Shown here one piece after another: positions 33,985-54,491 of a DNA stretch of 64,000 bases. Position 1 is the first letter of the stretch. Every line of letters begins with the position of its first letter. The stretch comes from Armatimonadota bacterium. Its GTDB lineage: Bacteria; Armatimonadota; UBA5829. The notes beneath the pieces were generated by a model, which was given only the letters and a program-made list of their open reading frames with translations, was not told the DNA's origin and searched no databases. Both the position numbers and the translations under genes were made by a program. The DNA lies in contig JAAYKE010000067.1 in NCBI GenBank assembly GCA_012522575.1, positions 383-64,382 of the forward strand, given 5' to 3'.

Positions 33985-34875
33985 TCAGGGGGATTTTGCT
34001 GTGAATGTCTCGATTAATCGTACGGGATGGTATGATTGCTTGGCTTTGCGCAGGCCGGGGATTCCGAGGTCCTGCTCCCGGTTGACGTATTTATATGACT
34101 GCGCCTCTGCCTTGCAGAATTCATTGTTGATAAGTTGATACAGGCCGTCGATTTGCGTGTGGGCTTTCTCCGCGTGAATGACCAGAGTATCGTCGTTCAG
34201 TTTTTCTCCCAGCGAGAAAGCGACGATCGCTCCACCGGCGCGAATTGCTCCGCCCACTATGCCGAGTGAGTCGAAATTGGTGAGCATCTGGTTCACCGCG
34301 CACCGCTCTTTGCGCAGACCCTCGATTGTCTCGCACATCTTATGCTCGCACCACAAATCAGCGAAAGCCTCGCACTCGACAGCCACCGACTCATCCATTT
34401 TCACATATTCATACTCTATCTGAGACCTGGCTCGCGCAATGAAGTTTCGCTTGCCGTCGAATCTGCGCCCGGCAAGCTCGATCAGGTCCTGCGCGGCGTA
34501 GACGTAGTCCGAATTGTCGGGATCATACTCGACTATAAGCCCTATATCTTTCATCTCACCGCCCGCTTCGCCGGATATGCGCTCGAATATCACGGGACGG
34601 TCGCTGCGGCGGATCATCTCCTCGACAACCGGCTTAATCGAGCCGACGCCCAGCGGCTCAAGGCTGGAAATGTGCTCATTTTGGTTGTTGATCAGCAAAA
34701 TGTGGTCGTATATGCGGGATAGCTCCGTTTGCTGAGACTCGCGCCAGGCGAATATATTGGTGAAGCTGTACGCGGAGATCTCCGTCGGCCTTTGTGCAAA
34801 GACCGCATCGAAGAAGGGCTTATCTCGCAGAGTTATTTGTCTTGATTGTGGATATTCAGGAATCATATTCATCAA
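33985..34875 (-). CDS. DUF2156 domain protein (homolog of the C-terminal lysyl-transferase domain of MprF/LysX)
   Basis: 296 aa. Family assignment is from overall pattern recall, so it is moderately confident only. Confidence 0.45.
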   Translation of the reverse strand: MMNMIPEYPQSRQITLRDKPFFDAVFAQRPTEISAYSFTNIFAWRESQQTELSRIYDHILLINNQNEHISSLEPLGVGSIKPVVEEMIRRSDRPVIFERISGEAGGEMKDIGLIVEYDPDNSDYVYAAQDLIELAGRRFDGKRNFIARARSQIEYEYVKMDESVAVECEAFADLWCEHKMCETIEGLRKERCAVNQMLTNFDSLGIVGGAIRAGGAIVAFSLGEKLNDDTLVIHAEKAHTQIDGLYQLINNEFCKAEAQSYKYVNREQDLGIPGLRKAKQSYHPVRLIETFTAKSP

Positions 34876-35647
34876 AAATGCGCCAGCGCATAATCTTCAC
34901 CGGCACATTGAACCATTTTCTTTTTGAGCCTGCCGGGGCCTTTCTCACTACAACTTTTCCATCTACCGGACTGGCCTCTATCCAACGCTCGTCTCCATAA
35001 TATATCATAACGTGTTTATCGTCGGCGACGGCCATATCTCCGACCTTGATCGTATTTGTATCGAATCCCGCCAGTTTTTCGGCGCTGCCTATCAGCCTTG
35101 TATACCCGTATTTATCCTGAGCTATATCTTTTGCGTCGATATCGCGCCACCAAAACGACCACAACTTTCTGCCCAACAACTGAGGATTGACTTCCTTTGC
35201 TCCCTGCCGCACCATAGCGTGCCATAGCGCGGCCCTCGCAAGCCCGGCGGAGTCAATTCCGATATCTGTCTCGCCGTTGACCTGATATGGAGTTCCGACA
35301 AACGCCCGCAATCGTTTATAGTAGACCTGCCGAAGCGCATCGGTGTCAGGTGGCTTGCTGCCAAGCACTGCCCAAACCACAAAGAGCGCGCTGAAAAATA
35401 CCGTCGGCCACACAGCCGCGTTTCTTTTGCCTATGCCGGAAAACAGGTAAACAAAACCGGTGAATATGCAGCTAAGCAGCGTCAAGACAAGCAGCAATCT
35501 TATCTGAGCGGTCATAGGAAAAATGCGTACGCCAATGCCGCACATCAGCAGCAATACGCCCGTTACTATCGCGCACAATACCTTGACGCTGATCTGTCGC
35601 GTAGTCTGTGTTTCGCCAGTTTCGGATTCAATTATATCGACCATCAA
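34856..35647 (-). CDS. Membrane-anchored NlpC/P60-like (C40 peptidase fold) protein with Ser in place of the catalytic Cys
   Basis: Two N-terminal TM helices, then GIDSAGLARAALWH (canonical DCSGLV) and GDMAVADDKHVMIYYG (canonical His box). Confidence 0.5.
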   Translation of the reverse strand: MMVDIIESETGETQTTRQISVKVLCAIVTGVLLLMCGIGVRIFPMTAQIRLLLVLTLLSCIFTGFVYLFSGIGKRNAAVWPTVFFSALFVVWAVLGSKPPDTDALRQVYYKRLRAFVGTPYQVNGETDIGIDSAGLARAALWHAMVRQGAKEVNPQLLGRKLWSFWWRDIDAKDIAQDKYGYTRLIGSAEKLAGFDTNTIKVGDMAVADDKHVMIYYGDERWIEASPVDGKVVVRKAPAGSKRKWFNVPVKIMRWRIFDEYDS

Positions 35648-35683
35648 AATATCTACGATCCGCCCGCGCCCATTGTTCCAATA

Positions 35684-36265
35684 TCACTTCGCCAGAGACG
35701 CGATAATACCTTCGGCTGTGTCGATGGAAACCCTTTGTCTCCAATACTTATCCTTGAGCAGCGCAGCATCATGGGAATTGGTCAAAAACCCGATCTCCAG
35801 CAGCACGGAGGGCATATAACGATATGTATCGCGCAGGACTCTGAGGCGGGAATACTGGCTCTGCGAGTCCCATTTTGCTCCCCGGTTGCGCAAATCGTGT
35901 TTTGCCAGTCGATTGACGAGTTGTTGAGCGATTGCATAGCTTCGCCTGTCCCCTTCCGCCACAAAAGCCTCCACTCCGTTTGCGGTCGCCGGCCCTGCGT
36001 TTATGTGGATGGAAACAAACAAATCGCAGTCGGCCTCTACTGCTTTCTTTCCACGTGATTCCAGGGTCACGAGCCTGCTATCCGGCCTGGTCACAATCGT
36101 TTTGATTCCGGCCAGGCGAATATTATGACCGATTCTGATGACAAAATCCAGGGCAAGCTCGTCCTCCACAAGGCCATTTGCCGCGCATCCGGTGTGGTGC
36201 AGACCACGATTTGCACCGTGGCCTGCATCGAGCGCGATTATGCGATTGTTGTCCTTCGCATTCAC
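35684..36265 (-). CDS. N-acetylmuramoyl-L-alanine amidase (Amidase_3 catalytic domain, no signal peptide; endolysin-type)
   Basis: IIALDAGHG, TRPDS, VSIHINAG and LLEIGFLTNSHD motifs. The start was reassigned to a GTG after a GGAGGT RBS (MNAKDNNRIIALDAGHG). The track ORF to 36688 over-extends. Confidence 0.75.
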   Translation of the reverse strand: MNAKDNNRIIALDAGHGANRGLHHTGCAANGLVEDELALDFVIRIGHNIRLAGIKTIVTRPDSRLVTLESRGKKAVEADCDLFVSIHINAGPATANGVEAFVAEGDRRSYAIAQQLVNRLAKHDLRNRGAKWDSQSQYSRLRVLRDTYRYMPSVLLEIGFLTNSHDAALLKDKYWRQRVSIDTAEGIIASLAK

Positions 36266-36270
36266 GCTGA

Positions 36271-36597
36271 TTACCTCCGAACCCTCTTCCACTGCTGATA
36301 TACGTGCTCGACCAGCAGGTTTGCGATGCTCTGCGGCACTGGAAAACCAAGCTCGGCTATGCATATCTTCTGAAGATAGATGACCGCCTGCTGGCGACGT
36401 TCGTCTGAGGACAATTCCGCTATCGCCCCCGCCCGTTCGATGGCGTCGGTGATTCTCTTTGCGCCGATCCTCTTTAGCCATTTGCGCGCCCAGCTCGGCA
36501 GCCTGTCCTTCTGGCTCAAATATGTGGTCAGCGCGCCCGTCACGCCGAGAGCAAGCGTAACCCAATCCCGGGTAGAAACAGTATCGAGTGTGATCAT
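36271..36597 (-). CDS. Putative holin-like small membrane protein (single N-terminal TM)
   Basis: 108 aa with WVTLALGVTGALTTYL hydrophobic segment. Its stop abuts the amidase start. The call rests on position only. Confidence 0.3.
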   Translation of the reverse strand: MITLDTVSTRDWVTLALGVTGALTTYLSQKDRLPSWARKWLKRIGAKRITDAIERAGAIAELSSDERRQQAVIYLQKICIAELGFPVPQSIANLLVEHVYQQWKRVRR

Positions 36598-36692
36598 ATA
36601 GGCTCCTTATATTATAGTTGATTGTGGGTTCTTGATTCTGAGGAGAGTGACGGCCCGCGAACCGCCGCCGATAAGTCCGGTTATCCAAATGC

Positions 36693-36992
36693 TTAATTGA
36701 GAATGGCGATTCTCACGACCGGTTCGCCGGCTATGCGGTGGACGGCGGTTTTGAGGACGGCATAGGTGCGGCCGTCGCGTGTCAGGGTATCTCCCACGCC
36801 TATGACTACATCCGGCGTTGTGGCCAGCATAAGAGCAGGATGAGTTATGCCCATTCGTTCGATATCATCCAAATACAGGCTCATATTGCCCGTATCGAGG
36901 AGCTTGAACATCCCGGCTCCGGTATTGCCGTTAATTACATATTCCTCCCCGAAACGCCGGAGCTTTTCGGCGAACCGCTCGGCAAATCGCAT
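36693..36992 (-). CDS. Phage head-closure / head-tail joining-like protein
   Basis: 99 aa. Its size and sequence pattern resemble the HK97 gp7-like head-tail joining family. Translationally coupled to the connector gene (GAGGTG-TAG-CAG-ATG). Confidence 0.4.
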   Translation of the reverse strand: MRFAERFAEKLRRFGEEYVINGNTGAGMFKLLDTGNMSLYLDDIERMGITHPALMLATTPDVVIGVGDTLTRDGRTYAVLKTAVHRIAGEPVVRIAILN

Positions 36993-36995
36993 CTG

Positions 36996-37427
36996 CTACA
37001 CCTCCTCTTTGATGCTGAATATAGGCTCTGCATCAGCGGTTGTGCTGGAGCAATGCGTCTCGGAGTCCATCGGCATGGCGCTTTTAAGATACGGAGCCAG
37101 CCGCGCGTGGCCTTGCCGAGTCAGGTCGACTCCGGATACTCCTGATGGCCCGATGGTGACTCCCGCCACGCCGAACTGCTCGGTTGCGCCGGTCTCTCTG
37201 CGCATCTGCTCGATGAATTCACCGGTTATGATTTCGAGAATCCCCAACTTGAGCGTGCCCTGCAACCCTGCGTTGAGCGTGTCGTTAAGATACATATCCG
37301 CGATGGAGTATTCGATCGGAGCCTGCATCTCGGAAATGAGCGCGGCTATAGCCGTATCGTAGTCAGTTACTGCGGAGTCAATGCCTGCTTTGCGCTTGAT
37401 ATCTGCGACAGTCAGGGTAATCGCCAT
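36996..37427 (-). CDS. Phage gp6-like head-tail connector protein
   Basis: The N-terminus MAITLTVADIKRKAGIDSAVTDYDTAIAALISEMQAPIEY matches the Phage_connect_1 pattern. Confidence 0.5.
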   Translation of the reverse strand: MAITLTVADIKRKAGIDSAVTDYDTAIAALISEMQAPIEYSIADMYLNDTLNAGLQGTLKLGILEIITGEFIEQMRRETGATEQFGVAGVTIGPSGVSGVDLTRQGHARLAPYLKSAMPMDSETHCSSTTADAEPIFSIKEEV

Positions 37428-37436
37428 TTGCGCCTC

Positions 37437-37802
37437 CTATCCGTAAAATGAGATATGAATCGTATCGTCTTGCCCTCCCTGCACGGGAGTGAAATCATCG
37501 ACGTCCAGGATCGCATAATACACCGTAGTCCCCTCCGGCACATCGTCGTCAATTGAATGCAAATCCGACAGAATATAGGCTGCATTGGATATGCTGATCG
37601 GGTCTTTGTAACCAATAATCAGCAACACATTAGAGATCGTTCTTGCGCTGAAGAACAAGCGAAAACGGGTTCCTCCGGTCACCTGGAAGCTGCCGTCGCT
37701 TTCTCCATCGAGGGAGTGCACCAGACCGCCGGTTCGCGTCCTGGCATCTCCGCCGGATGCGATATGCACCGCCACCGGCATTATATTTTTCAGATTGTTC
37801 AT
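37437..37802 (-). CDS. Hypothetical phage structural protein
   Basis: 121-aa ORF located between the capsid and connector genes. Confidence 0.3.
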   Translation of the reverse strand: MNNLKNIMPVAVHIASGGDARTRTGGLVHSLDGESDGSFQVTGGTRFRLFFSARTISNVLLIIGYKDPISISNAAYILSDLHSIDDDVPEGTTVYYAILDVDDFTPVQGGQDDTIHISFYG

Positions 37803-37909
37803 CGTATGGCTCTCCGCTTTGGGTCTTTGTTATATGGAGTCAGAAGTCTGGGTGACGATTCGCAAACCGCCACCCGTGGTGTTATTTTTCAGCTTCATTG
37901 CTGTGGCTG

Positions 37910-38817
37910 TCAGCTCACCTGGCTGCCGTAGGCCATCTGCCAGAGGCCATAGCCGGTGTTATACCGGGCGCGCACGCCATAGACAAACTCATCCCGCATA
38001 AACCCGCTCTCCGAATCCGCTTCGAGGGCCGCAAACTCAACCGGGGTTCGGCTCTGGAGGATGATCGGCTTGACGACACCTTTAGTCGAAAGCACAAACC
38101 AGTCGTTGACATCGGTCAGATATGGCGAGACAAGCAAATCGAGTTTGCCTTTGAGCACGTTTGAAGCGGCTCTTGATGTCGTGGAACCCTCCTCCGGCCA
38201 ATATGAACTCTCCAGAAGTTCCATAGCAACCCACTGCATATCCGGCGGCACTACCAGCAAATCCGGAGTTACTCCCATCAATTTGCCGCGGTCATCTCGA
38301 TATTTCATCATCGCGGTAATCGCGCTCTGCAACGCGGAAGCGGATAATGCTGCGGTTCCCTTGTTCGATTGAGACCCGGAATCCCCCTCGGAGTGATCTG
38401 TAGCAAAGAACGCCTAGCCGTCGTAGCACTTGCCGGTGAATCCGTTTTTGAGCAGGCCGAACGCTAGTTCGTCCATGTGCCTTTTCGCCTCGCGGGCCAG
38501 CGACACCACCCGCAGCTTGATCTGGCCATATTTATCGTCCTCTATGGCCGCCCTCTCGATGGCTATCGAGGACTCCCAGGTCTTGTTGCGTATCGAATAA
38601 TCGTGTTCGAGCAAGCCCAGCGGCATGCGCTCGTCGACGAACTCCCGAATTGCAGGAACCGCACCCAGCCAGGAATAAGTTTCCTGATCTGACCCGGAGC
38701 TTATCACTGTTGCGATGCGGGAATGTTCGCCGGCGGTGGCATCAAGGGCCTCGAAGAATACGGTTTTAAGCCCATCCTCAAGCAGTTTGGGCATATCTGA
38801 TCTTGTAAGCGGCATAT
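37910..38817 (-). pseudogene. Mu gpT-like major head (capsid) protein gene containing an in-frame TAG at 38414-38416. The N- and C-terminal halves are called as separate ORFs in the track
   Basis: Track ORFs 38414..38890- and 37910..38332- are in the same frame (84-nt gap, no other stop): ...GFTGKCYDG*AFFATDHSEGDSGS...LQSAITAMMKY.... Mu-gpT hallmarks are YSWLGAVPAIREF, CYDG-x-FFATDH, VVKPIILQS, FMRDEFVYGVRAR and GYGLWQMA. The likely real start is MPLTRSDMPKLL after an AGGAG RBS. Confidence 0.6.
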
Positions 38818-38967
38818 TTTTCTCCTGTTTGGATGTGATTGGTTGATGGTTGGCTGCGCATGCGGACGGACGATGATCTGCCCGTCGCATTCCAAAGCAG
38901 CCTCAAAGCAGAAAGCCCGGCGCTGAGAACACCGGGCCGATAGATGATATTGCACTGGCAGGCGAAC

Positions 38968-39576
38968 CTACTCCAGCGATAACTCTCCGATTTGGCTTAT
39001 GCCTTCGTTGTCGACATATTTGACCGCTATTTCGAAGGCCTGCTGTGGTGAAATGGGTTCAAATGAATGCACCATGATGTTCATTTGCACCGTGCGCGTG
39101 TGGTCGCCGATTTTCTGCAGCATGCGAATGCCTCTCAGCAGTTTTGCGCCTCGTCTGCGGTAGAATTCTATGCGCCGACGTGCGATATCTGCATCCGGCG
39201 AGTCCTCCGGCACTTCCACCTCGAAGACCACGAATTTCGCACCGCTTTCCTTTGCTCGTCTTACCACCTCGTCGTAGCACACTGCCCCAACTCCGCTGCC
39301 CCGCAGCGCCGGCAAAGTGGCGAGATACCAAAGCGCAAAGGCATTTATTTCGGGCTTGGTGCGATAAAACATAAGCCCGGCAAACTCCCCGCGCTCGTCC
39401 AATGCGGCGATCAGCCGACTTTCCACCCCGTCTTCCTTGATATCCGGGTTGAGGAACCGAAAAAAACCGGAAACCAGTATCTTCTCTTCGGGAGGAAACG
39501 CGGTCTCATACAAATCGAGCCAGGGCATAAAAAGAGCGTCGTTGATATCGGTTATTTCATAAAAAGTAATCTTCAT
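38968..39576 (-). CDS. GNAT-family N-acetyltransferase embedded in the capsid module
   Basis: 202 aa with an acetyl-CoA binding region (LATLPALRGSGVGAVCYDEVVRRAKESGAKFVVFEV). Confidence 0.65.
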   Translation of the reverse strand: MKITFYEITDINDALFMPWLDLYETAFPPEEKILVSGFFRFLNPDIKEDGVESRLIAALDERGEFAGLMFYRTKPEINAFALWYLATLPALRGSGVGAVCYDEVVRRAKESGAKFVVFEVEVPEDSPDADIARRRIEFYRRRGAKLLRGIRMLQKIGDHTRTVQMNIMVHSFEPISPQQAFEIAVKYVDNEGISQIGELSLE

Positions 39577-39611
39577 ACCGATTTTTTCGGCATCAATTGC
39601 TCTATTACCTG

Positions 39612-40028
39612 CTAGGCGGCATACCTGTCGATTCTGATCCTCACCGCAGTGGCGGATATGGACTCGACTGCGAACCCGGCGGTAATATTGGCCGTGGTTG
39701 CGGCATCGGTGACGGTCTGATTGTCCACGATATGGAACCCCACGCCCACATCGGTCTGAGCGCCGTTCGCGCCGCCGTCTACAAATACAAACGTGCCGGT
39801 GGTCTGGACGCGAATGCCGATATCCCCTGCGCTGCCGCCGGAGTTGTCTACGGTCTCATAGGCGACTCCGGCGAATGTTTCGGATGCGGTGTCGCTCGCG
39901 TTGGTCGCATAGCCGCTGGCGTTGATATTCACCAGCGCGCCTTTGGGAATTTTCACATTTGCCATAGGATAGCAGATGATCGCCCCATCCTTTCTTTTGG
40001 ACTCCCTGGCTGTGGTGGTTGCTGTCAT
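39612..40028 (-). CDS. Hypothetical Gly/Thr-rich phage structural protein (possible decoration/scaffold-associated)
   Basis: 138-aa ORF with beta-rich composition, located between the protease and capsid genes. Confidence 0.3.
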   Translation of the reverse strand: MTATTTARESKRKDGAIICYPMANVKIPKGALVNINASGYATNASDTASETFAGVAYETVDNSGGSAGDIGIRVQTTGTFVFVDGGANGAQTDVGVGFHIVDNQTVTDAATTANITAGFAVESISATAVRIRIDRYAA

Positions 40029-40044
40029 AAGATTCTCCTTTCCG

Positions 40045-40758
40045 TTATCTGCTCCTGTATTTTTCTACCAGCCCGCTGGTCACGCCGAGCTTTGCATACA
40101 ACTCCGGCTCTTCGACTTCCCCGGCTGCAGGCGCGACCTCCGAAAACTCAATCACCTTTGGCTGAGATTCCAAAAACCATCTGAAAACCTGAGAGATCGG
40201 AGTCGGTCGGTCGGCAAATGCGATTGTGTCGGAATCCTGCGAGCATAAAATAGCCCTTGCAAAGACCTCCGCTGCGGGCGCAATTTTGCCGCTTCTTTTT
40301 AGCTGATCTATGGCAATTTGCGCATCTTTTTCGGCTACTTCGCGGCGCAGAGCTTCATCGGAACTGCCAAATACCGAGCTGAGTTCTCCGTCGAGCCGAA
40401 CGCAATCCGCCTCCCCGAACACGGCAGCATCGGCTATCCTCGGCTCACGAACAAGGGATACCTCAGATATCCGGCTCTTGTCCTTGACAATGGCCACCGA
40501 AAGCCGTCTTGCGTTGGCAGATTTGACCAGTTCCCAGGCTGCTTTGGTAAAACACAGCCTCCCGAAAAGCTCCTTGCCTTTACGATAAACGTTTTTCAGC
40601 ACCCCAAGCGCGCCATCAAAAGGCGTCGAGGAGTGCTCAATGCGCAGCGGCGCATCGGATGTGTTGGCAATGATTCGATCGAGGTCCTCCTCGGTGATCT
40701 CAATGCCTCGATCCGGATAGCTGCCCGCCTCAAACAATTTAGCCTCACGTTCGATCAC
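40045..40758 (-). CDS. Mu gpI-like prohead protease / scaffold protein
   Basis: 237 aa. The N-terminus LFEAGSYPDRGIEITEEDLDRII resembles Mu-like prophage protein I, and its position after the portal gene fits. Confidence 0.4.
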   Translation of the reverse strand: MIEREAKLFEAGSYPDRGIEITEEDLDRIIANTSDAPLRIEHSSTPFDGALGVLKNVYRKGKELFGRLCFTKAAWELVKSANARRLSVAIVKDKSRISEVSLVREPRIADAAVFGEADCVRLDGELSSVFGSSDEALRREVAEKDAQIAIDQLKRSGKIAPAAEVFARAILCSQDSDTIAFADRPTPISQVFRWFLESQPKVIEFSEVAPAAGEVEEPELYAKLGVTSGLVEKYRSR

Positions 40759-40830
40759 AATTACCTCCTGAATTTGTTTGCATGTGAGAAATATATGGCA
40801 GTCCCATACGCTTTTATGTTCCGTGTAAAA

Positions 40831-42015
40831 CTAGCTCGGCAGACCCAGATATCCCCTGATCCACTCCTCGTCAGGCTTGATAATCTGCCCGCTCACCAGT
40901 TTTCCGATGACCTCCGCAAGCCCGGCGACATCCGCATCCTCCAGCGGCCCAAGGCTGAAGGTTGGATAGGATTTTGTCGAGAAATTGAAGTCAACCAGAC
41001 GCTTTATGACCTGCTCACGCATGACGGCTTCCTCAAGGTCGCGTTTGAGCTTATGCAGGCACATCTTGAGCACGTCGAGATGCACCTTTGCGAGCGCGTA
41101 GCTGCCCACTCGAATGCCCTCGTCGGTCATCAGCGTCTGGCAGAGAATTGCGCGGGATATCTGCTTGTCGTGCCATTCGATGGCCTGCAAATACCCCGAT
41201 TCCCCGCCACGTCCGGCCTCCAGCAGTTCCACCTGCACGTCATCCGGGATGACGATGGCGGTCTGCTGCTGAATCTTGTCCAGCACTCGCAGCAGTTCTT
41301 CCTGCGCCTGCTTCGGAGTTCCGCGCTTGTAGGAGCCTTTAGCGGTCGGGGAGCCGTGCTTCTCCAGATACAGATTCATAAACCGGGTGAGCACGTCTTT
41401 GCTCCAATAGTGCTTATATGCGGCGCGCAGATCCGATGTGCCGTAGGGGGATTCATACCTGGGCATGTGCGAATATATCACGAACTTATCCGATGGAAGC
41501 GTCCGCTCGACCGAGGCTGTCCCCGTCCGCTTCAACGCCCGCACGTTCATAAACTCATCGACCTCAAAGGAAAAAGTCGACGGGTCCTTTGCCTTTATGG
41601 AAGCGATTCCCACGCGACCTTTATGGGGGCCGTCCTCGAAAATGCTATAGTTGATTTCCAGTATGGAAAAGCCCTTTGCCAGCGCATCGAGCACATTGTA
41701 TAGCACGGTCAGTATCGAGCCGCGCATATCCGCCAGCGCAAAACGCACGAAGTCCGCGACCTCCACATCCTGCGGATCGCGCGTCGCCGGGTGCACCTCC
41801 CATCCGTGCGATAAAACCGCAAGTTTTTTGATAGTCAAACACGCCTGCACCTGAGCGTCGCGCTGCATTTGTTCATATATTGCATAACCTCTTCTGCCGA
41901 TCAGGTCATCGGGGTTGTATGAGTCGATATCGTTAATCAAAGACCCGGCAGCGGCCGTCTCATTCAGCCCGGGAGAACGCCGCTTGCTGAACCGGGAAAG
42001 CAGTGGAATCTTCAT
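40831..42015 (-). CDS. Phage portal protein (DUF935 / Mu gp29-like)
   Basis: 394 aa with a DUF935-like pattern, located immediately downstream of terL. GAGGTG RBS. Confidence 0.55.
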   Translation of the reverse strand: MKIPLLSRFSKRRSPGLNETAAAGSLINDIDSYNPDDLIGRRGYAIYEQMQRDAQVQACLTIKKLAVLSHGWEVHPATRDPQDVEVADFVRFALADMRGSILTVLYNVLDALAKGFSILEINYSIFEDGPHKGRVGIASIKAKDPSTFSFEVDEFMNVRALKRTGTASVERTLPSDKFVIYSHMPRYESPYGTSDLRAAYKHYWSKDVLTRFMNLYLEKHGSPTAKGSYKRGTPKQAQEELLRVLDKIQQQTAIVIPDDVQVELLEAGRGGESGYLQAIEWHDKQISRAILCQTLMTDEGIRVGSYALAKVHLDVLKMCLHKLKRDLEEAVMREQVIKRLVDFNFSTKSYPTFSLGPLEDADVAGLAEVIGKLVSGQIIKPDEEWIRGYLGLPS

Positions 42016-42066
42016 AAAACACCTCGGGTTTGGACGTTGGAAATTGGTTGTTGGAAGTTGGGCGGT

Positions 42067-43386
42067 CTACCAGCTTTGCCTTGCCATTCTGCCGGCCTGA
42101 CTCAAATATGCGGAATTGTGCGCAAACCCTTCGGTCTGTTTGCAGGCCAGCGCGAGGGCGATCACCAGGTCGTCGTTGATACCGACCCTGCCGTTCATAC
42201 GCACATTGCCGGAGGCGGTCAGCTCGTATTCATAATATTGAAGCTCCCGCAGAAGCTGCTCGTCGGGTAGAATGGTGATCGAACGGTGCGCGAACTTGAG
42301 GGACAAATGCTCTATCAGATCTCGTTTGGATCGGTTTGAGAATGTATAGCCCTCCACCGCCACATCGATGCCGAAGTCCCATAACCTGGCGCGAAGCTGT
42401 TCGAGCAGGGGATCCCCTATCGAAGTAGAATCGGCGAGCGCGCAACTCACTCGATGGGTTTTGAGGAACTGCGCAACCCTTGTGATCTGGCTGTCCCAGC
42501 CCATTTTATTGAACCTGTCGATGCCGATTATGTGGCAGCCGCGTTCATCCGATACCATCGCGACCACGGCGGTATAGTCCGAATATCTCGCCCAGTCTAT
42601 TCCCGCCACCACCACGCCGTCCGCGTCCGCTGCGTGCGAATCGGAGACCGCCGCCTCGATGTCCTCCCATGCAAAAACGCAGTTGGAATCGTCGATAAAC
42701 TGCGCCTCATATTCCACCGCAAACTGCCTCGGACTGATCTCCTGCCGCTGAGTTTCGATATATTGACGACTTATATGCGGGTTTGCCCACGATGGAAAGT
42801 TGAATGACCGGCACGCCGCGCCGTCATCAGACCCTGCGCCCCTCATAAATGCGCGATAGAAATGATTCCTGCCAAATGGAGTGCTGATCATAACCAGCCG
42901 ACCGTTGCGATCGGCAAGCATAGGGGAAATGACCTCGCTTATAACGGAGTCCCGAACAAACGCGGCCTCATCGACTATCACCCTGTCTGCGGAATGTCCG
43001 CGCAGATTGCGCCCATCCTCATCGGCGGTGCGCGCCATTATCAGGCTGCTGCCGAGAGCAAGCCTCGGATAGGGAGTGCGCGTGATTTTGGTGATGCCGC
43101 GAGTGAGCCGCGAGCCTGTCATCAGTCGTTCGATATGATCGAAGATGAGCCTGGATTGATCGTAAGTCGGGGAGACTATGATCTGCTTTGAGCCGGGATG
43201 CAAAATGGCGAGGGTGGCGGCGTCCACCGCGGCGGCCTCGGTTTTACCCCATCGACGCCCGCAGGATGCCACCTTAACTCCCGCATCGGTCAGCAGCCAT
43301 TTCTTCTGTGTTTCGTGCGGTTTCCATCCCCAGATATGATCGGCCAGCGTCAGGCGAACCGATGAATCAGTCCCCGCGGGCATTGT
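42067..43386 (-). CDS. terL: Phage terminase large subunit
   Basis: Walker A CGRRWGKTEAAA plus a C-terminal RNaseH-like nuclease region. The start was set to the internal Met (MPAGTD), and the gene overlaps terS. Confidence 0.75.
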   Translation of the reverse strand, partial: TMPAGTDSSVRLTLADHIWGWKPHETQKKWLLTDAGVKVASCGRRWGKTEAAAVDAATLAILHPGSKQIIVSPTYDQSRLIFDHIERLMTGSRLTRGITKITRTPYPRLALGSSLIMARTADEDGRNLRGHSADRVIVDEAAFVRDSVISEVISPMLADRNGRLVMISTPFGRNHFYRAFMRGAGSDDGAACRSFNFPSWANPHISRQYIETQRQEISPRQFAVEYEAQFIDDSNCVFAWEDIEAAVSDSHAADADGVVVAGIDWARYSDYTAVVAMVSDERGCHIIGIDRFNKMGWDSQITRVAQFLKTHRVSCALADSTSIGDPLLEQLRARLWDFGIDVAVEGYTFSNRSKRDLIEHLSLKFAHRSITILPDEQLLRELQYYEYELTASGNVRMNGRVGINDDLVIALALACKQTEGFAHNSAYLSQAGRMARQSW

Positions 43387-43744
43387 CGCCCTCCGTTTTG
43401 TCGTGAATGGCTTTGACCATATCGACCAGAGCCGCCCCGGGATCCTCACTTTCGGCATCGAAAACCCCGCTCACTTTAAGCACATCGACGAGAACCTTGG
43501 TGTCCGGTTTGTCCGGATTGGACGCCAACTGACACAGCCGAGCGGCCGAGTTCACCACTGCCTGCCGCGCTATCCTTTTGGCCCCGAGTTCCTGCTCACG
43601 CTCACGAACCCTCAAAGCGCGCGCAAAACGATCCGATTCCATCCAACCTCTTAAAGTAGAAAGACGCACCCCGATCATTTCAGCCACAACCGTATCGGGA
43701 TGACAAAGAAGCAACTCGATTGCATCACGATGTTTAGCCCTCAT
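43367..43744 (-). CDS. Putative terminase small subunit / HTH DNA-binding protein
   Basis: 125 aa with an HTH (VAEMIGVRLSTLRGWM), directly upstream of and overlapping terL. AGGAGG RBS. Confidence 0.45.
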   Translation of the reverse strand: MRAKHRDAIELLLCHPDTVVAEMIGVRLSTLRGWMESDRFARALRVREREQELGAKRIARQAVVNSAARLCQLASNPDKPDTKVLVDVLKVSGVFDAESEDPGAALVDMVKAIHDKTEGDNARGD

Positions 43745-46227: not shown

Positions 46228-47001
46228 TTACGGAATCGACTCTATCGGGTCGTCGGTGACCTTGCGCAGGGTTCGAGCATCTATGCGCTCCACCCCGTCT
46301 TTGAGCCTGGCCTCGCAGAAATCCGAGCGATAGAGTTGCAATATGATCTCCATCGGCATTGTAACCTTATAGGGCTTGACTTTGCCGACCAGAGCCATCG
46401 ATTTGCGGGCTGCTTCTCTGATCAGGTTGCGGGCTTCGTCGATGTCGATGCAATCAGCGCGATTTCTTCCAACGCCTTTTTTCACGGTCGCGGTTTCGAT
46501 ATTGCCGAAAAACTGCCTCGCCTCCACGCACGCCGCCTCATCTCCGCTCACCATAATCACCGGCACATCGTAGCTGCCCGTGACCAGGCCCCATCGACCA
46601 ATCTCCCCTGTATTTCGACCATTTATGGAGTAGTTGTACCACTCCCTCGAATTTTGCGTATGATCCAGAAACCCGTTGATAGTGCCCGCCATCGCGTGCG
46701 CGCCTACGAAGAACGTGCCGCTGTAGCTGCCGTCTATTTTCCGCTGTCTTTTTTTATTTGTCCTGGGATCGTGCTCCGCTCTGCTATCAAGCAGTTCCTC
46801 GATGAAGTTGCTGCCGCCGCCGTGTCCGTCACGCACCGTCACATGCGTAGCTCCGCCCTCGAAAGCCCCTTCTACAGCCGCGTTCAAATCTCCCATCAGC
46901 AGTTCGCAGCACTCGCGGAAACGATCGCCGTCCCGCTGAATCATCTCAAAAGAATCGATTCCCGTTATTCCTTCGAGGTCGGTCATAATATAGATTTTCA
47001 T
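46228..47001 (-). CDS. M55 family metallopeptidase (D-aminopeptidase DppA-like), cytoplasmic paralog
   Basis: MKIYIMTDLEGITGI N-terminus is typical of DppA/M55. Confidence 0.7.
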   Translation of the reverse strand: MKIYIMTDLEGITGIDSFEMIQRDGDRFRECCELLMGDLNAAVEGAFEGGATHVTVRDGHGGGSNFIEELLDSRAEHDPRTNKKRQRKIDGSYSGTFFVGAHAMAGTINGFLDHTQNSREWYNYSINGRNTGEIGRWGLVTGSYDVPVIMVSGDEAACVEARQFFGNIETATVKKGVGRNRADCIDIDEARNLIREAARKSMALVGKVKPYKVTMPMEIILQLYRSDFCEARLKDGVERIDARTLRKVTDDPIESIP

Positions 47002-47016
47002 TGTATCACCTGCAAT

Positions 47017-47877
47017 TTACGGAAACAGTTCCAGCGGGTCGCTTGTTATTTTCCGAACAGTGCGCGCATCTATGCGCTCGATTCCGTCTTTGAGCCTTCC
47101 TTCGCAGAAATCCGCCCGGTTAAGCTCCAATACGACCTCCATAGGCATGGTAACTTTATACGGCTTAACTTTGCCAACCAGAGCCATCGACTTTCGTGCG
47201 GCTTCACGGATTCGCTTGCGCGCTTCGTCGCTGTCGATGCAATCCGCGCGATTTCTCCCAATGCCTCTTTTGACAATGGCGGTTTCCACGTGGTTAAAAA
47301 ACTGCCTCGCCTCGACACAAGCCGCCTCGTCTCCGCTCACCATAAGCATAGGCACATCGAAGTTGCCTGCTACCAGCGCCCACATGCCAAGCTCCCCGGT
47401 CTTGCGGCCATTGATGTAGTAGTTATACCAATGCAGGGACGACTGAGTATGATCGAGAAAACCATTGATAGTGCCCGCCATCGCGTGCGCGCCGATAAAA
47501 AACGTGCCGCAGTAGCTGTCGTCGAGCTTGCCCCACCATTTTTTATTGGTTTTGAGATCGTTATCCGCCCTTTTATCGAGCAGATCGAGCACAAAATTGC
47601 CGCCGCCGCCGTGGCTGTCCAGCACTGTTACGTGCGTAGCTCCGCCCTCAAAGGCGCCTTCTATGGCCGCATTGAGATCGCCCATCAGAAGCTCGCAGCA
47701 CTCGCGATACTGCTTGCTGTCTCGTTGGATCATTTCGAAGGAATCGATGCCGGTGATCCCTTCGAGATCGGTGTGAATGTAGATTTTCATGTCCTTTGGC
47801 TGCTCTTTCTGAGTAGTTGCGCAAAAGCCGCACATGGGAATGGCAAGGATGCAGAGTAAAGCAAATAATGATTTCAT
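47017..47877 (-). CDS. M55 family metallopeptidase (DppA-like) with an N-terminal signal peptide; tandem paralog of the previous gene
   Basis: ~75% identical core to 46228..47001 plus MKSLFALLCILAIPMCGFCATT signal peptide. Confidence 0.7.
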   Translation of the reverse strand: MKSLFALLCILAIPMCGFCATTQKEQPKDMKIYIHTDLEGITGIDSFEMIQRDSKQYRECCELLMGDLNAAIEGAFEGGATHVTVLDSHGGGGNFVLDLLDKRADNDLKTNKKWWGKLDDSYCGTFFIGAHAMAGTINGFLDHTQSSLHWYNYYINGRKTGELGMWALVAGNFDVPMLMVSGDEAACVEARQFFNHVETAIVKRGIGRNRADCIDSDEARKRIREAARKSMALVGKVKPYKVTMPMEVVLELNRADFCEGRLKDGIERIDARTVRKITSDPLELFP

Positions 47878-52518: not shown

Positions 52519-53664
52519 TCAAACGACGTCTTCTTCATCCGGTTGAACATCTTCTGCTGCACGACGCAAAGCCAGAAAGGCGAGCTTCAGCGAATGACCG
52601 ACTCCGCTGTCTGTTTCTGACAGGACCAATTTCTGATACTCATCAAGAAATGTTGTGCGTAAACGGTGGAACAAGTGCAGAAAATGGCGGAGAAAACCAA
52701 GGCAGTCTATAATAGAAAATTCGATGCCGCCCGTACGCTGATATAAACCAGCGGCATATTCATGCACCTTGTCTTCGGTTTTGTCGGTTGTGATAAATAC
52801 GTAGTTGTCTATGCGATATGGCCAGCGGAGCGTCTTGTTCAAAGCTGTGTCAACGTCTTCTTGCGTCACAGACTTCTGTTTCATTTCATAAGAGGTTACT
52901 ACTTTGCCGCTGTCATCGCGAAGAGTAATGCTGACATCTCCAAGGCTTAGAGTTTGTTTATCGGCGGCATTATGAGCAGTCATAGGCAATATTTGTTGCT
53001 CAAGATTATCAACTGCGGCGTTATAACAAGCAGCTATGATTAGAACAGGCAGGCGGCTGGACCACTGGCATTTCAAATGTTGTTCAATCAGTTGGACTAT
53101 TGCTCCAGCCGACAACGGCAACGCATCGCCATCCGGCTTAAATAAGTTAAGCGCCGCATTCAATTCTTCTTCGCGCTCGTTCTTATATACAATCAAACAC
53201 CTTATGGCTTCAGAGAGCAAGTCATCTGCCGCAATGGTTCCATTTTGCACGTGGTCGAGCAGTTGAATTACAGCTTCATACAACTCCATTGGTTTGCCCA
53301 GCAATGCTGTGCCAGAAAGCAACGGGATATTAATATTACGCAGACAAGGGGTCAAAAAAGCAGTTGAAGGATTGCATGGAAGCTTCTTTTCGTGTATGAA
53401 CGGGCCGATATATGTCTCATCGTACATCCGCCCCGAATAACAATCCGGGCTGCCGATTTCGGTATAAGGTTTACGTATATCAGTGTCAGGACGATCAATT
53501 TTAGCCAGCAGACAAGCAATTAATAACCGAATACCTGCACGCGTACGACACCGACTTACATATAATACGGACGATGTGATCGATTTGTCGCTAATTATGG
53601 AAGCAGAACCGGATGCTCTGGCTCTTTCGAATGCGATCTCAAGGATTTGTCTTGGTTCTGGCAT
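52519..53664 (-). CDS. Putative type II restriction endonuclease (PD-(D/E)xK-like) partnered with the adjacent Dam-type methylase
   Basis: 381 aa with candidate LGDVS...SYEMKQK catalytic D...ExK. It overlaps the 3' end of the methylase gene, and the local GC is lower. Confidence 0.5.
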   Translation of the reverse strand: MPEPRQILEIAFERARASGSASIISDKSITSSVLYVSRCRTRAGIRLLIACLLAKIDRPDTDIRKPYTEIGSPDCYSGRMYDETYIGPFIHEKKLPCNPSTAFLTPCLRNINIPLLSGTALLGKPMELYEAVIQLLDHVQNGTIAADDLLSEAIRCLIVYKNEREEELNAALNLFKPDGDALPLSAGAIVQLIEQHLKCQWSSRLPVLIIAACYNAAVDNLEQQILPMTAHNAADKQTLSLGDVSITLRDDSGKVVTSYEMKQKSVTQEDVDTALNKTLRWPYRIDNYVFITTDKTEDKVHEYAAGLYQRTGGIEFSIIDCLGFLRHFLHLFHRLRTTFLDEYQKLVLSETDSGVGHSLKLAFLALRRAAEDVQPDEEDVV

Positions 53665-54491
53665 TTCACCGTTCCGTTGTTAAGTGATTGAAAGTCATAA
53701 TTGACCCAAAGAACTTCCTGGCGAGGCGTTTTGACGGAATGGCAAAGCTTAAGCGGACCATCAATATGAGACCAACTTGAATACAATTCATCCATTAATT
53801 CGCAATGATAGCCGGACAAAGCTACTTTCCCCTGAGCGCTATGCAAGACCTCCGCAAGCGTACGATGCTCTTCGTCGGTCATTTCATATCCGTAAGCATT
53901 GCAGTCTCCACGCGCACTGTGCGGATACGGAGGATCGCAATAAAACAGAGTGTCTTTTGTATCGTAACGACCTATCACTTCAATAGCCGGCGCGTTCTCT
54001 ATCTGCACGCGCTGTATTCGTTGCACTATATAGGGTAAATCCTCTATTGAGCCCAGCCATCTGGACACAGCCCCGGCCATACCGGCTCGGCTTGTCAGTG
54101 TACAGTGCGCCCATCTCCCGCTAGTGGCCTTTTGAGCCAATCCCGTACGCACTTGGCGAGCTTTAACGTAGAAGCGACGCGCTCTCTCTAATGAAGACAA
54201 GTCATTTTGAGGCTCGGAAATCGCGCGTTGAAACTCTTCTCGTGAAAAAGGAGTCAAAGCAATAGCCTCAATCAAGGCATCCTTTTCATCTCTTAAGACA
54301 CGAAAAAAGTTGACGACATCGCCATCCAAATCGTTGTATGTTTCCACTTCGGACGGTGGTTTATTGATGAGAAGCGCAGCGGAGCCACCGAAGGGTTCAC
54401 AGTAGTGCTTCGTTCTGGGCAACAACGGAAGAAGCCATTCAGCGTGGCTAAACTTGCCGCCATACCATCCGAAAGCAATCAACTTTCCCAC
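53595..54491 (-). CDS. DNA adenine methyltransferase (D12 class / Dam family, N6-Mtase)
   Basis: FGGSAALL AdoMet motif I and DPPY motif IV (YCDPPYPHS). Confidence 0.85.
   Translation of the reverse strand: MGKLIAFGWYGGKFSHAEWLLPLLPRTKHYCEPFGGSAALLINKPPSEVETYNDLDGDVVNFFRVLRDEKDALIEAIALTPFSREEFQRAISEPQNDLSSLERARRFYVKARQVRTGLAQKATSGRWAHCTLTSRAGMAGAVSRWLGSIEDLPYIVQRIQRVQIENAPAIEVIGRYDTKDTLFYCDPPYPHSARGDCNAYGYEMTDEEHRTLAEVLHSAQGKVALSGYHCELMDELYSSWSHIDGPLKLCHSVKTPRQEVLWVNYDFQSLNNGTVKCQNQDKSLRSHSKEPEHPVLLP

Follow-up and report, generated by a model that had tools for sequence, protein, structure and literature searches.

A phage-derived head-and-lysis gene module conserved in Armatimonadota, a candidate GTA-like family

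Thirteen co-oriented phage-type genes occupy positions 34856-43744 on the minus strand of the stretch of Armatimonadota DNA analysed here (64,000 nucleotides, hereafter the window), as an ORF and profile check of the window confirmed. The series comprises a TerS-like gene, TerL, a Mu-type portal, a protease/scaffold, a cement protein, an inserted GNAT gene and a Mu gpT-type capsid, followed by a small variable protein, a gp6-like adaptor, a lambda gpFII-like head-closure protein, a holin-like protein, an Amidase_3 endolysin and a membrane NlpC/P60-like protein. Host genes identified by profile adjoin both ends, LPG_synthase_C/DUF2156 on one side and creatininase and glpK on the other; profile scans of other ORFs in the window gave host-type genes, and the other left-flank ORFs, judged by eye from their translations, look housekeeping-like. 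No tail, integrase, repressor or replication gene was found in the 64-kb window, and no att-like repeats were found around the module. The initial annotation had described a locus limited to head morphogenesis, packaging and lysis with an embedded GNAT, and the family matches agree: the portal, TerL, capsid, GNAT and amidase calls hold in profile searches, and those for TerS, the head-closure protein (p99) and the holin-like protein (p108) come from weak matches.

The packaging and head genes, all on the minus strand, begin with the TerS-like small terminase (43367-43744; 125 aa), which matches a PHROG terminase small subunit family (1.3e-4), has an N-terminal HTH-like segment, lies directly upstream of TerL with an overlap and has orthologs in 23 loci. 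TerL, the large terminase (42067-43383; 438 aa), matches Terminase_6N (3.4e-17) and, weakly, Terminase_6C; its reading frame is open up to 43458, and 43383 is probably the start, as annotated in other assemblies of the strain. Across 25 species, there is no variation in its Walker A (CGRRWGKT), Walker B (DEAA) and STP motifs or in two acidic motifs of its RNaseH-like C-terminal half. The portal (40831-42015; 394 aa) is of the Mu/DUF935 type (Portal_Mu/DUF935, 1.7e-73), and p237 (40045-40758), with orthologs in 35 loci, is a Mu gpI-like head maturation protease/scaffold (Mu-like_Pro, 3.3e-3; PHROG_976 head maturation protease, 1.7e-14). A capsid cement or decoration-type virion protein, p138 (39612-40028), matches the virion structural protein family PHROG_1731 (1.5e-23) and, weakly, HDPD, and one ortholog has a weak precomputed Phage_cement_2 match; it is the most conserved gene of the set, with 75-88% identity where the portal has about 60-70%. 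A small membrane-protein gene lies between p237 and p138 in the nearest relatives and is missing in the window. The GNAT acetyltransferase (38968-39576; Acetyltransf_1, 4e-7) is confined to the strain of the window and the relatives nearest to it (L003 and L011), and is a lineage-specific insertion outside the conserved core. Between it and the capsid gene, a consensus scan found a GC-rich hairpin followed by a T-run (38914-38938, minus strand; 11-bp stem with 7 GC pairs) that resembles a terminator or attenuator. The slot between capsid and adaptor holds p121 (37437-37802), a small protein, beta-rich by composition and with no family match, which was present in only 7 loci; elsewhere the slot contains a head-decoration-like, ConA-like, fibre-like or large uncharacterised protein, depending on the lineage, and p121 is possibly a surface or decoration protein.

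The major capsid gene (37910-38815, minus strand; 301 codons) is of the Mu gpT type, with Mu-like_gpT matches of 6e-35 and 2e-32 on its two halves, and a single in-frame TAG (38414-38416) interrupts the window copy. Four further contigs assembled for this strain, 99.96% identical, read AAG (Lys) at this codon, so the TAG is either a mutation private to this copy or an error; L003 and L011 have the gene intact (301 aa, 91% identical to that of the window). The initial annotation had called the locus a complete DNA-packaging head, and the gene families bear this out, but it overlooked the amber codon, which truncates the capsid gene; this assembly therefore lacks an intact set of head genes. If the amber codon is real, the window strain is incapable of making capsids.

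The neck and lysis genes follow on the same strand. The portal adaptor, p143 (36996-37427), is a head-tail connector like HK97 gp6 and SPP1 gp15, and is always directly followed by p99 (36693-36992), a lambda gpFII-like head-closure or tail-attachment protein with Pfam Phage_attach matches in 12 of 29 orthologs (best E 1.5e-4). The putative holin, p108 (36271-36597), lies directly before the endolysin, and an alignment of 19 orthologs gave it an N-terminal hydrophobic helix and a helical domain; the helix of the window protein is only moderately hydrophobic, and one family member alone has a weak Holin_LLH match. In 12 loci, the gene before p108 encodes a small protein with a coiled coil and a C-terminal transmembrane segment, which we take to be XhlA-like; a representative has a weak PHROG 'hemolysin' match (7e-4). 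The endolysin is an N-acetylmuramoyl-L-alanine amidase of 193 aa (35684-36265; Amidase_3, 7.8e-34), with the limits called for the gene in further assemblies of the strain. A 334-aa 'amidase' ORF was rejected as an over-extension of this 193-aa gene (35684-36265), with p108 lying upstream in another frame. Amidase_3 follows p108 in many lineages, with orthologs in this position in at least 10 loci, and an unrelated endolysin (PHROG_2649, 8e-30) takes its place in one further locus (L031); this succession of p108 and either Amidase_3 or a different endolysin argues that lysis is part of the unit. The last gene (34856-35647) encodes a membrane-anchored NlpC/P60-like protein with N-terminal transmembrane segments, a weak NLPC_P60 match (3.5e-4) and, among PHROG families, similarity to the peptidase portion of minor tail proteins (3.8e-5). 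Only the nearest clades (L003, L011 and L009) share its position beside the amidase, and its membership in the module is uncertain. A holin-like gene with an exchangeable endolysin is the usual sequel to the head genes, and the lysis functions proposed at first are supported.

Comparison with related genomes indicated that the block is conserved. More than 120 portal homologs with 60-87% identity were found, and all those with a phylum name belong to Armatimonadota. A genome scan located 40 loci in 40 genome assemblies, one in each, with portals 40-88% identical; the scan used two strict peptide patterns, and its approximately 40 species-level genomes are therefore not a measure of prevalence in the phylum. 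Carriers include Fimbriimonas, Chthonomonadia, HRbin16 and UBA5829. Most loci of sufficient length contain TerL, portal, p237, p138, capsid, p143 and p99. Some lineages have a rearranged gene order, and two orders occur, with p143-p99 either after the capsid gene or directly after the portal. In Fimbriimonadales-type genomes, TerL and portal stand alone among GlnE, CarA, IspDF and TopA, and no TerL homolog was detected next to the other cluster genes in three loci (L033, L034 and L037). Insertions of host-type genes that vary with the lineage lie at different points of the cluster, including GNAT, a MIP aquaporin, a sugar nucleotidyltransferase-kinase, an IS and an ABC ATPase, and two of the relatives examined (L006/L007 and L073) have a gene for a DNA methyltransferase close by. 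The best portal match in a cultured phage has 32.6% identity, and in IMG/VR the element is represented solely by fragments of 4-11 kb, beyond which matches fall to 26-28% identity; by these comparisons, the module appears to be without a free-phage counterpart. We found no earlier description of it in the literature.

Tail genes were sought around the module in relatives as well. None lay next to it in the gene calls of five relative contexts, and the absence of tail, integrase, repressor and replication genes claimed for the window also holds for the flanks examined in a subset of the approximately 40 loci (about 10 kb on each side, less on short contigs). An all-vs-all comparison yielded no large recurrent accessory family, and in a PHROG survey of 149 non-core ORFs from 17 loci, the 25 most recurrent families did not include any for tail tube, sheath or baseplate; a lone 'tape measure' family had three members, co-occurring with endolysin and metallo-endopeptidase families of the same count. 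Since some lineages have even their head genes dispersed among housekeeping genes, an unlinked tail cluster is conceivable, and the tail-less heads of the initial annotation are not established.

Several lines of evidence point to long residence of the module in its hosts. Despite saturated synonymous divergence, protein identity is 50-90% across approximately 40 species, and dN/dS is about 0.03-0.12 for module genes (0.04 for the capsid gene and 0.08-0.09 for the TerS-like gene) and highest for p121 (0.25-0.31), values that are approximate because dS is saturated. The flanking creatininase gene has a dN/dS of 0.035, and the dN of portal and capsid equals that of this host gene. By these values, the module is under strong purifying selection in dozens of species. 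The GC content of the core genes follows that of the flanking chromosome (r = 0.97 over 39-76% GC, n=29), module genes co-diverge (Spearman 0.69-0.89 between distance matrices), and the chromosomal site is the same within clades, on the creatininase side in the window, L003 and L011 and on the DUF2156 side in L009. GC tracking, within-clade synteny, single copies and, in a few pairs, equal divergence of element and flank together indicate apparent vertical inheritance, and the insertions, reordering and dispersal are an erosion typical of a domesticated rather than a mobile cluster. The locus had been termed an island; recent acquisition does not fit GC that matches the host, the lack of att repeats and the shared site in related species.

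Judged from these genomic data, we consider it probable that the locus represents an old phage-derived module for head formation and lysis, fixed in the chromosome and inherited vertically, which constitutes a candidate new GTA-like family (viriforms). Because it is kept under strong selection across dozens of species, it would be a domesticated GTA-like device and not a dead prophage. Phylum-wide conservation under purifying selection thus sets it apart from an ordinary prophage remnant, as first suspected, and much strengthens the GTA-like reading offered then. We propose that the host switches the operon on in a subpopulation of cells, in which procapsids would be built on the portal and then matured by the protease, and that TerS and TerL would load the capsids with DNA, probably that of the host, as the element is incapable of excision or replication. 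Adaptor and gpFII-like protein would close the portal and leave a tail-docking surface, and holin and endolysin would lyse the producer cell and free tail-ready, DNA-filled capsids. Delivery might use tails from an unlinked locus, tails from co-resident or environmental phages, as documented for cf-PICI capsids, or no tail at all. To our knowledge, however, all GTAs are tailed, and we know of no way for a DNA-filled head to deliver DNA without a tail, so the 'transfer' part of this reading may be wrong. A functional precedent is offered by cf-PICIs, whose tail-less capsids are released and acquire tails later (10.1101/2025.02.11.637232).

A close counterpart is RcGTA of Rhodobacter capsulatus, which likewise consists of chromosomally fixed phage structural genes without integrase or replication genes, is apparently inherited vertically across a large clade under purifying selection, and combines TerS, TerL, portal, protease, capsid, adaptor and head closure with release by holin and endolysin. 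However, the main RcGTA cluster goes on to a complete tail (terminator, tube, tape measure, distal tail, hub and fibre), whereas only lysis genes follow head closure in the module, and the lysis genes of RcGTA are at a separate locus but those of the module are within the cluster. In addition, the head genes of the module are of the Mu gpT/DUF935 type and unrelated in sequence, and its hosts belong to another phylum.

A possible but less favoured explanation is that the cluster is half of a tailed particle, a split GTA or defective phage with its tail genes at one or more unlinked loci of the same genomes, in which case ordinary tailed GTA particles would result. The separation of TerL-portal, or of TerL, from the other head genes in some lineages would fit, and the gp6-like adaptor and gpFII-like tail-attachment protein are under selection, which is most sensible if something docks. 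RcGTA has accessory loci, some alphaproteobacteria have split GTA clusters, and Armatimonadota genomes are reported to have scattered operons, which fits unlinked tail loci. In Fimbriimonas, the rRNA operon is split (PMC4072686). Against this, no tail gene was seen within the 64-kb window or up to 10 kb to either side of the cluster in the relatives examined, tail genes follow neither of the two gene orders, and no candidate tail cluster could be named.

It is rather unlikely that the module was domesticated for another function, either anti-phage defence, by capsids that act as sponges for the tails or DNA of an infecting phage or by altruistic lysis on infection, or programmed lysis that releases protected DNA for biofilm or nutrients. 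Conservation under selection together with a self-lysis cassette, a tail-docking surface kept where tail genes are not nearby and the methyltransferase genes mentioned above would accord with such a role, but the invariant TerL motifs and TerS point to DNA packaging as the selected activity, and we know of no precedent for a head-only defence system. A decaying prophage remnant, left without function after loss of its tail, lysogeny and replication modules, is very improbable: the premature TAG in the capsid gene and the missing membrane-protein gene of the window would suit decay, but the TAG is absent from the other four contigs of the strain, and the reduced set is shared by approximately 40 species with low dN/dS and invariant TerL catalytic motifs. 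Least credible of all is a capsid-forming satellite, to which a likeness was suggested initially, as a mobile, self-packaging island that depends on a helper phage for tails and induction. The head-only content (capsid, protease, portal, connectors, TerS and TerL, without tail) is shared with cf-PICIs such as the prototype EcCIEDL933, and their tail-less capsids are released to acquire tails later (10.1101/2025.02.11.637232), but the int, alpA, rep and HNH genes of these helper-induced elements are absent from the window and relatives, as are att repeats and signs of mobility. Moreover, the module occurs singly in each genome and keeps its site within clades, and it has GC equilibrated to each host over 39-76%, inserted host genes, a dispersed cluster and its own lysis cassette, which is absent from the cf-PICI description.

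Three further systems bear comparison with this candidate GTA-like module. PBSX of Bacillus subtilis is also a chromosomally fixed phage-like element, and its lysis cassette has the layout xhlA-holin-amidase, which the 12 relatives with the coiled-coil protein upstream of p108 resemble; PBSX differs in forming tailed killing particles, and the likeness concerns chromosomal fixation and cassette layout. Caudovirales-derived loci of Thaumarchaeota contain a conserved morphogenesis module without att or replication functions, for which domestication is possible (PMC6563490), but they are head-tail loci in few archaeal genomes and mutually highly divergent, whereas dozens of bacterial species share a single orthologous head-only set here. 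By portal, the closest cultured phage is Bacillus phage Eoghan (Andromedavirus; 32.6% identity), which has a MuF-like head morphogenesis gene and a full siphovirus tail directly after the neck, both absent in the module, but encodes TerL, portal, protease, an approximately 140-aa protein, an approximately 300-aa capsid and an adaptor in the same order, and the two adaptors have a C-terminal motif in common.

Thirteen genes run consecutively along the minus strand between 34856 and 43744. They are best interpreted as a phage-derived, GTA-like module, domesticated and inherited vertically, which is predicted to make DNA-filled capsids. To our knowledge, only a few independent GTA lineages have been recognized, all of which make tailed particles; a module restricted to head and lysis genes and retained over a very long period in a little-studied phylum would be a different case.

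The module opens with a TerS-like protein (43367-43744; PHROG terminase small subunit, 1.3e-4), followed by TerL (42067-43383, with 43383 probably the true start; Terminase_6N, 3.4e-17) and a Mu/DUF935-type portal (40831-42015), whose Portal_Mu match (1.7e-73) reaches 248 bits against a curated cut-off of 23.9 and places it in that family. Next come two proteins designated by their lengths: p237 (40045-40758), which scores below the cut-off for Mu-like_Pro (3e-3; 17.5 bits against 25.2) and is supported as a protease by PHROG_976, a head maturation protease family (1.7e-14), and p138 (39612-40028), which matches a PHROG virion structural protein (1.5e-23) and has an ortholog with a weak precomputed match to Phage_cement_2. 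A GNAT gene recognized by its Pfam profile (38968-39576) precedes the Mu gpT-type major capsid gene (37910-38815), both halves of which belong to Pfam Mu-like_gpT (121 and 113 bits; cut-off 20.1). Downstream are p121 (37437-37802), for which no family match was found, the adaptor p143 (36996-37427), which had no direct profile match, and the putative head-closure protein p99 (36693-36992), assigned through its orthologs, 12 of 29 of which match Phage_attach, the Pfam family of the lambda gpFII head-tail attachment protein. The series ends with the putative holin p108 (36271-36597), an Amidase_3 endolysin (35684-36265; 7.8e-34) and an NlpC/P60-like protein (34856-35647), recognized by a weak profile match and predicted to be membrane-anchored by N-terminal transmembrane segments. 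Profile scans upheld the gene block of the initial annotation. A 334-aa 'amidase' ORF proved to be over-extended, running across p108 in a different frame, and a stop codon in the capsid gene had been overlooked.

Profiles of p143, p99 and p108 found no match among PDB sequences, a concatenated p143-p99 query returned p143 homologs alone, and hhalign detected no similarity of p99 to the Neck1 protein, or of p138 to the scaffold protein, of Bacillus phage Eoghan; a single-sequence structure model of p99 (pLDDT 44) was too poor for use. The p143 consensus ends in EEVW, and the Eoghan adaptor is likewise W-terminated; the window copy ends in EEV (36996-36998), without the near-universal terminal Trp, and its stop codon overlaps the start codon of p99. 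A scan for promoters and terminators gave counts near the shuffle expectation and was uninformative apart from one strong GC-rich hairpin (38914-38938, minus strand; 11-bp stem followed by a T-run) between the GNAT and capsid genes, which may be the terminator of the GNAT insert or an attenuator ahead of the capsid gene.

The single in-frame TAG lies at 38414-38416 ('...GKCYDG*AFFATDH...'), so that the head gene set, described initially as complete, has an interrupted capsid gene in this assembly. The strain is represented by four further assembled contigs that match the window at 99.96% identity over up to 8.6 kb; all of them carry AAG (Lys) at this codon, so that their capsid protein is intact at 301 aa. 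Their sources are run SRR3166067, an anaerobic digester metagenome available as ENA and Logan assemblies, and JGI metagenome 3300038805, so the contigs are not fully independent of one another. The window differs from these assemblies at only three positions over 8.6 kb: 40785 and 40793, which are separated by 8 nt within the portal-p237 spacer, and 38416, which creates the amber codon. The AAG in all four contigs marks the TAG as a private mutation or an assembly error and rules out recoding, suppression or pyrrolysine, readings also opposed by the absence of a tRNA from the window and by the intact 301-aa capsid genes of relatives. The codon is not a sign of general decay; if the base call is correct, it probably disables the module in this genome.

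The same module is found in other Armatimonadota. More than 120 portal homologs at 60-87% identity were retrieved, and all those with a named phylum belong to Armatimonadota; a scan of one genome per species yielded 40 loci in 40 assemblies, one locus per genome, with portals 40-88% identical and including MAGs labelled Fimbriimonas, Chthonomonadia, HRbin16 and UBA5829. A Chthonomonadia portal query for a cultured host returned MAGs only. One apparent archaeal host, a 'Methanoregulaceae archaeon' (L074; GCA_020850325.1, JADZEW010000025.1), was rejected as a mis-binned contig, since it carries bacterial genes (IspD/IspF, a ribosome hibernation factor, a PEP-CTERM protein and bacterial topoisomerase I), and a UniRef entry labelled Anaerolinea thermolimosa may be a similar case. 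By tblastn mapping and all-against-all clustering, the recurrent core comprises TerS, TerL, portal, p237, p138, major capsid protein (MCP), p143 and p99, followed in many lineages by p108 and an endolysin.

Tail genes are absent from all the surroundings that we searched. In the window, the module is bounded by DUF2156/LPG_synthase_C on one side and by creatininase and glpK on the other; the other profile-scanned ORFs are of host type (Peptidase_M55, SmpB, ABC transporter parts, a WecG-family glycosyltransferase and others), and DnaK, aspartate kinase and cytochrome c assembly genes are recognizable by eye in translations of the left flank. Neither Pfam and PHROG scans nor this reading of the left-flank ORFs revealed a tail, integrase, repressor or replication gene in the 64 kb, which confirms the original observation of a head-and-lysis island lacking these functions and abutted by host genes. 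In eight contexts from relatives, gene calls and Pfam searches of up to 10 kb on each side again found no tail, integrase or replication gene, and the neighbours were ordinary host genes, such as those for acetyl-CoA carboxylase subunits, an SSF transporter, a tRNA synthetase and UvrD helicase. Among 149 non-core ORFs from 17 diverse loci, endolysins and prohead proteases recurred in PHROG scans, and no tail tube, sheath or baseplate family was among the 25 most recurrent; the lone 'tape measure' family in those 25 co-occurs with endolysin and metallo-endopeptidase families, all at three members.

The arrangement of the core varies. The p143-p99 pair directly follows the portal in two loci (L021 and L025), and the portal lies downstream of the capsid block in L042-L046. 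Insertions of host type differ among lineages and occupy different points in the cluster: the GNAT gene in the window and its two nearest species (L003 and L011), an MIP channel in L008, a sugar nucleotidyltransferase-kinase in L009, an IS transposase in L033 and an ABC ATPase in the HRbin16 clade. In Fimbriimonadales-type genomes, TerL and portal form an isolated pair among GlnE, CarA, a GidA-like gene, IspDF and TopA; examples are L049 (8532-20426), with GlnE, CarA, a Zn-ADH and the GidA-like gene, and L074 (8700-11068), with biotin carboxylase, IspDF and TopA. The pair in L072 (8727-19718) has RmuC and DprA, a transformation protein, no more than 8 kb away, which may be a coincidence. Between p237 and p138, eight relatives (the two nearest species among them) have a gene in reverse orientation that encodes a multi-pass membrane protein of ~128 aa (L003: 12331-12714, minus strand; no PHROG match); the p237-p138 gap in the window is only 16 nt (40029-40044), indicating that the gene was lost there. 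A reverse-oriented SDH_protease/NfeD (ClpP/S49-like) gene stands between TerL and portal in six lineages (for example L006:9058-9915 and L019:8959-9816, both minus strand) and may encode a second or replacement prohead protease; two non-core ORFs that match PHROG head-maturation-protease families are presumably genes of this kind.

Lysis genes belong to the module, as judged from their recurrence beside the core. The p108 protein, present in 19 loci, has at its N-terminus a hydrophobic helix, only moderately so in the window copy, and also contains a helical domain; since an endolysin gene invariably comes after it, the 'holin-like' label initially given to it is reasonable. The next gene is Amidase_3 in many loci and an unrelated endolysin in L031 (PHROG_2649, 8e-30), so that the gene content, a holin-like protein with an Amidase_3 or other endolysin, is that expected for release by lysis. 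Upstream of p108, 12 loci encode a small protein with a coiled coil and a transmembrane segment at its C-terminus (weak PHROG 'hemolysin' match of a representative, 7e-4), an order that we take to recall the xhlA-holin-amidase layout of PBSX. The NlpC/P60-like protein is adjacent in the nearest clades only, which leaves its membership uncertain. The slot between capsid and adaptor is variable: it holds p121, the fastest evolving of all the genes, in the window strain, a head-decoration-like and a ConA-like protein in L025, a fibre-like 256-aa protein in L031 and a 985-aa protein of no assigned family in L010. Phages encode capsid-surface proteins at this position, and the particles may carry lineage-specific surface or adhesion proteins.

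Several lines of evidence indicate that the module has long been maintained by its hosts. Between the window and its two nearest species, whose module proteins are 73-91% identical, dS is saturated (about 1.2-2), and dN/dS, read with that saturation in mind, falls between 0.03 and 0.12 for all genes but p121 (0.25-0.31); the value for the flanking creatininase is 0.035 at the same dS, and the dN of portal and MCP equals that of this host gene. Across 25 species, TerL shows no variation in its Walker A, Walker B and STP motifs or in two acidic motifs of the RNaseH-like C-terminal half. Core-gene GC content tracks that of the flanking chromosome over a range of 39-76% (r = 0.97, n = 29), and the pairwise distance matrices of seven core proteins correlate strongly (Spearman 0.69-0.89): the core diverges as a unit, without the usual phage mosaicism. 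Insertion sites are shared within clades, as seen on the creatininase side for the window with L003 and L011, and on the DUF2156 side for L009. The entry of host-type genes, the altered gene orders and the dispersal of TerL-portal described above likewise fit a host-maintained element. Together, dN/dS, GC content, synteny, copy number and co-divergence point to apparent long-term vertical inheritance under purifying selection, as in GTAs, and the particle genes reside in the host chromosome without integrase, excision, replication or lysogeny-control functions.

No close free-phage counterpart emerged from portal searches of cultured phages and IMG/VR. The best cultured portal, that of Eoghan, is 32.6% identical, and Eoghan has a MuF-like head morphogenesis gene, whereas the element has none; IMG/VR holds only 4-11 kb fragments of the element itself, after which identity falls to 26-28%. 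An exhaustive portal search revealed a continuum of relatives at 35-46% identity, mostly much longer proteins (700-1100 aa, against 355-430 aa for element portals) that are probably fusions with another head protein.

Gene content, its conservation, the selection on it and its long residence in the host are shown by the data, and expression, assembly, the kind of DNA packaged and any transfer are inferred. We propose that the capsids would be sealed by the adaptor and the gpFII-like tail-attachment protein and would be released from the producer cell by holin and endolysin. The complete tailed particle of a GTA is not encoded at the locus, either in the 64-kb window or within the flanks of up to 10 kb in relatives, and three explanations of the missing tail can be considered. 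Tails may be encoded at unlinked loci, which is plausible given that the head genes themselves disperse; the capsids may capture tails of phages, for which the tail-less capsids of cf-PICIs (capsid-forming satellites) provide a precedent (10.1101/2025.02.11.637232); or the function may need no tail. The first two are favoured by the fact that selection has retained a protein for tail docking. We regard as possible, though rather unlikely, a more far-reaching proposal, in which a phylum-wide, host-fixed system without tail genes of its own would package chromosomal DNA into sealed, tail-ready capsids, release them by self-lysis and deliver the DNA through tails of unrelated phages (a 'tail-stealing GTA' that would correspond, on the chromosome, to cf-PICI capsids), or its capsids would work with no tail; such a system would represent a new class of domesticated virus-derived element.

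Assignment of the family to cf-PICI-type satellites has one point in its favour, as the module carries the head set of the defining gene list (capsid, portal, protease, head-tail connectors, TerS and TerL, without tail; 10.1101/2022.09.08.507074). However, the core genes int, alpA and rep are missing from the window and its relatives, HNH, also on that list, appeared in no scan, and every sign of mobility is lacking: in place of att sites, sporadic distribution and foreign composition, we found host-level GC, shared sites and host-gene insertions, and flanking repeats are at most short, imperfect and at chance level. The satellite assignment is thus excluded. A decaying remnant, as an account of the family, is excluded by wide conservation together with the data on selection, residence and position, and instead of relaxed selection, pseudogenes and patchy presence, the sole defect is the private TAG of the window.

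A full-text literature search found no described GTA or head-only element in Armatimonadota. In a hot-spring study, a 7.1-kb region of Fimbriimonadales MAGs, annotated 'portal; head; capsid' and lacking an att site, is listed without comment as an 'incomplete prophage', and a conceptually similar domestication has been proposed for a few thaumarchaeal head-tail loci (PMC6563490). What is new here is a GTA-like domesticated structure that is confined to head and lysis genes and occurs in a new phylum. If tails are encoded elsewhere, the module would be a GTA family not known before, in a phylum new to such elements, with genes able to scatter through the genome; if they are not encoded, it would be the first host-owned 'capsid without tail' strategy, as recently found in cf-PICI satellites, which would bear on DNA movement between uncultured bacteria. 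Viromes and heterologous expression offer direct tests of the prediction. In addition, virus-detection pipelines label the element as an 'incomplete prophage' or a viral contig, as with the IMG/VR fragments and the hot-spring listing, which inflates prophage counts for the phylum.

Two further features of the window lie outside the module. A tandem pair of Peptidase_M55 (D-aminopeptidase) paralogs is located just past glpK (46228-47877, minus strand), compared with a single copy in the stretch seen of L003. A low-GC patch at 52519-54491 (0.46, against about 0.54) contains a D12-class N6-adenine DNA methyltransferase (53595-54491, minus strand) and an adjoining 381-aa ORF (52519-53664, minus strand) with no Pfam match, which are probably a horizontally acquired restriction-modification pair.
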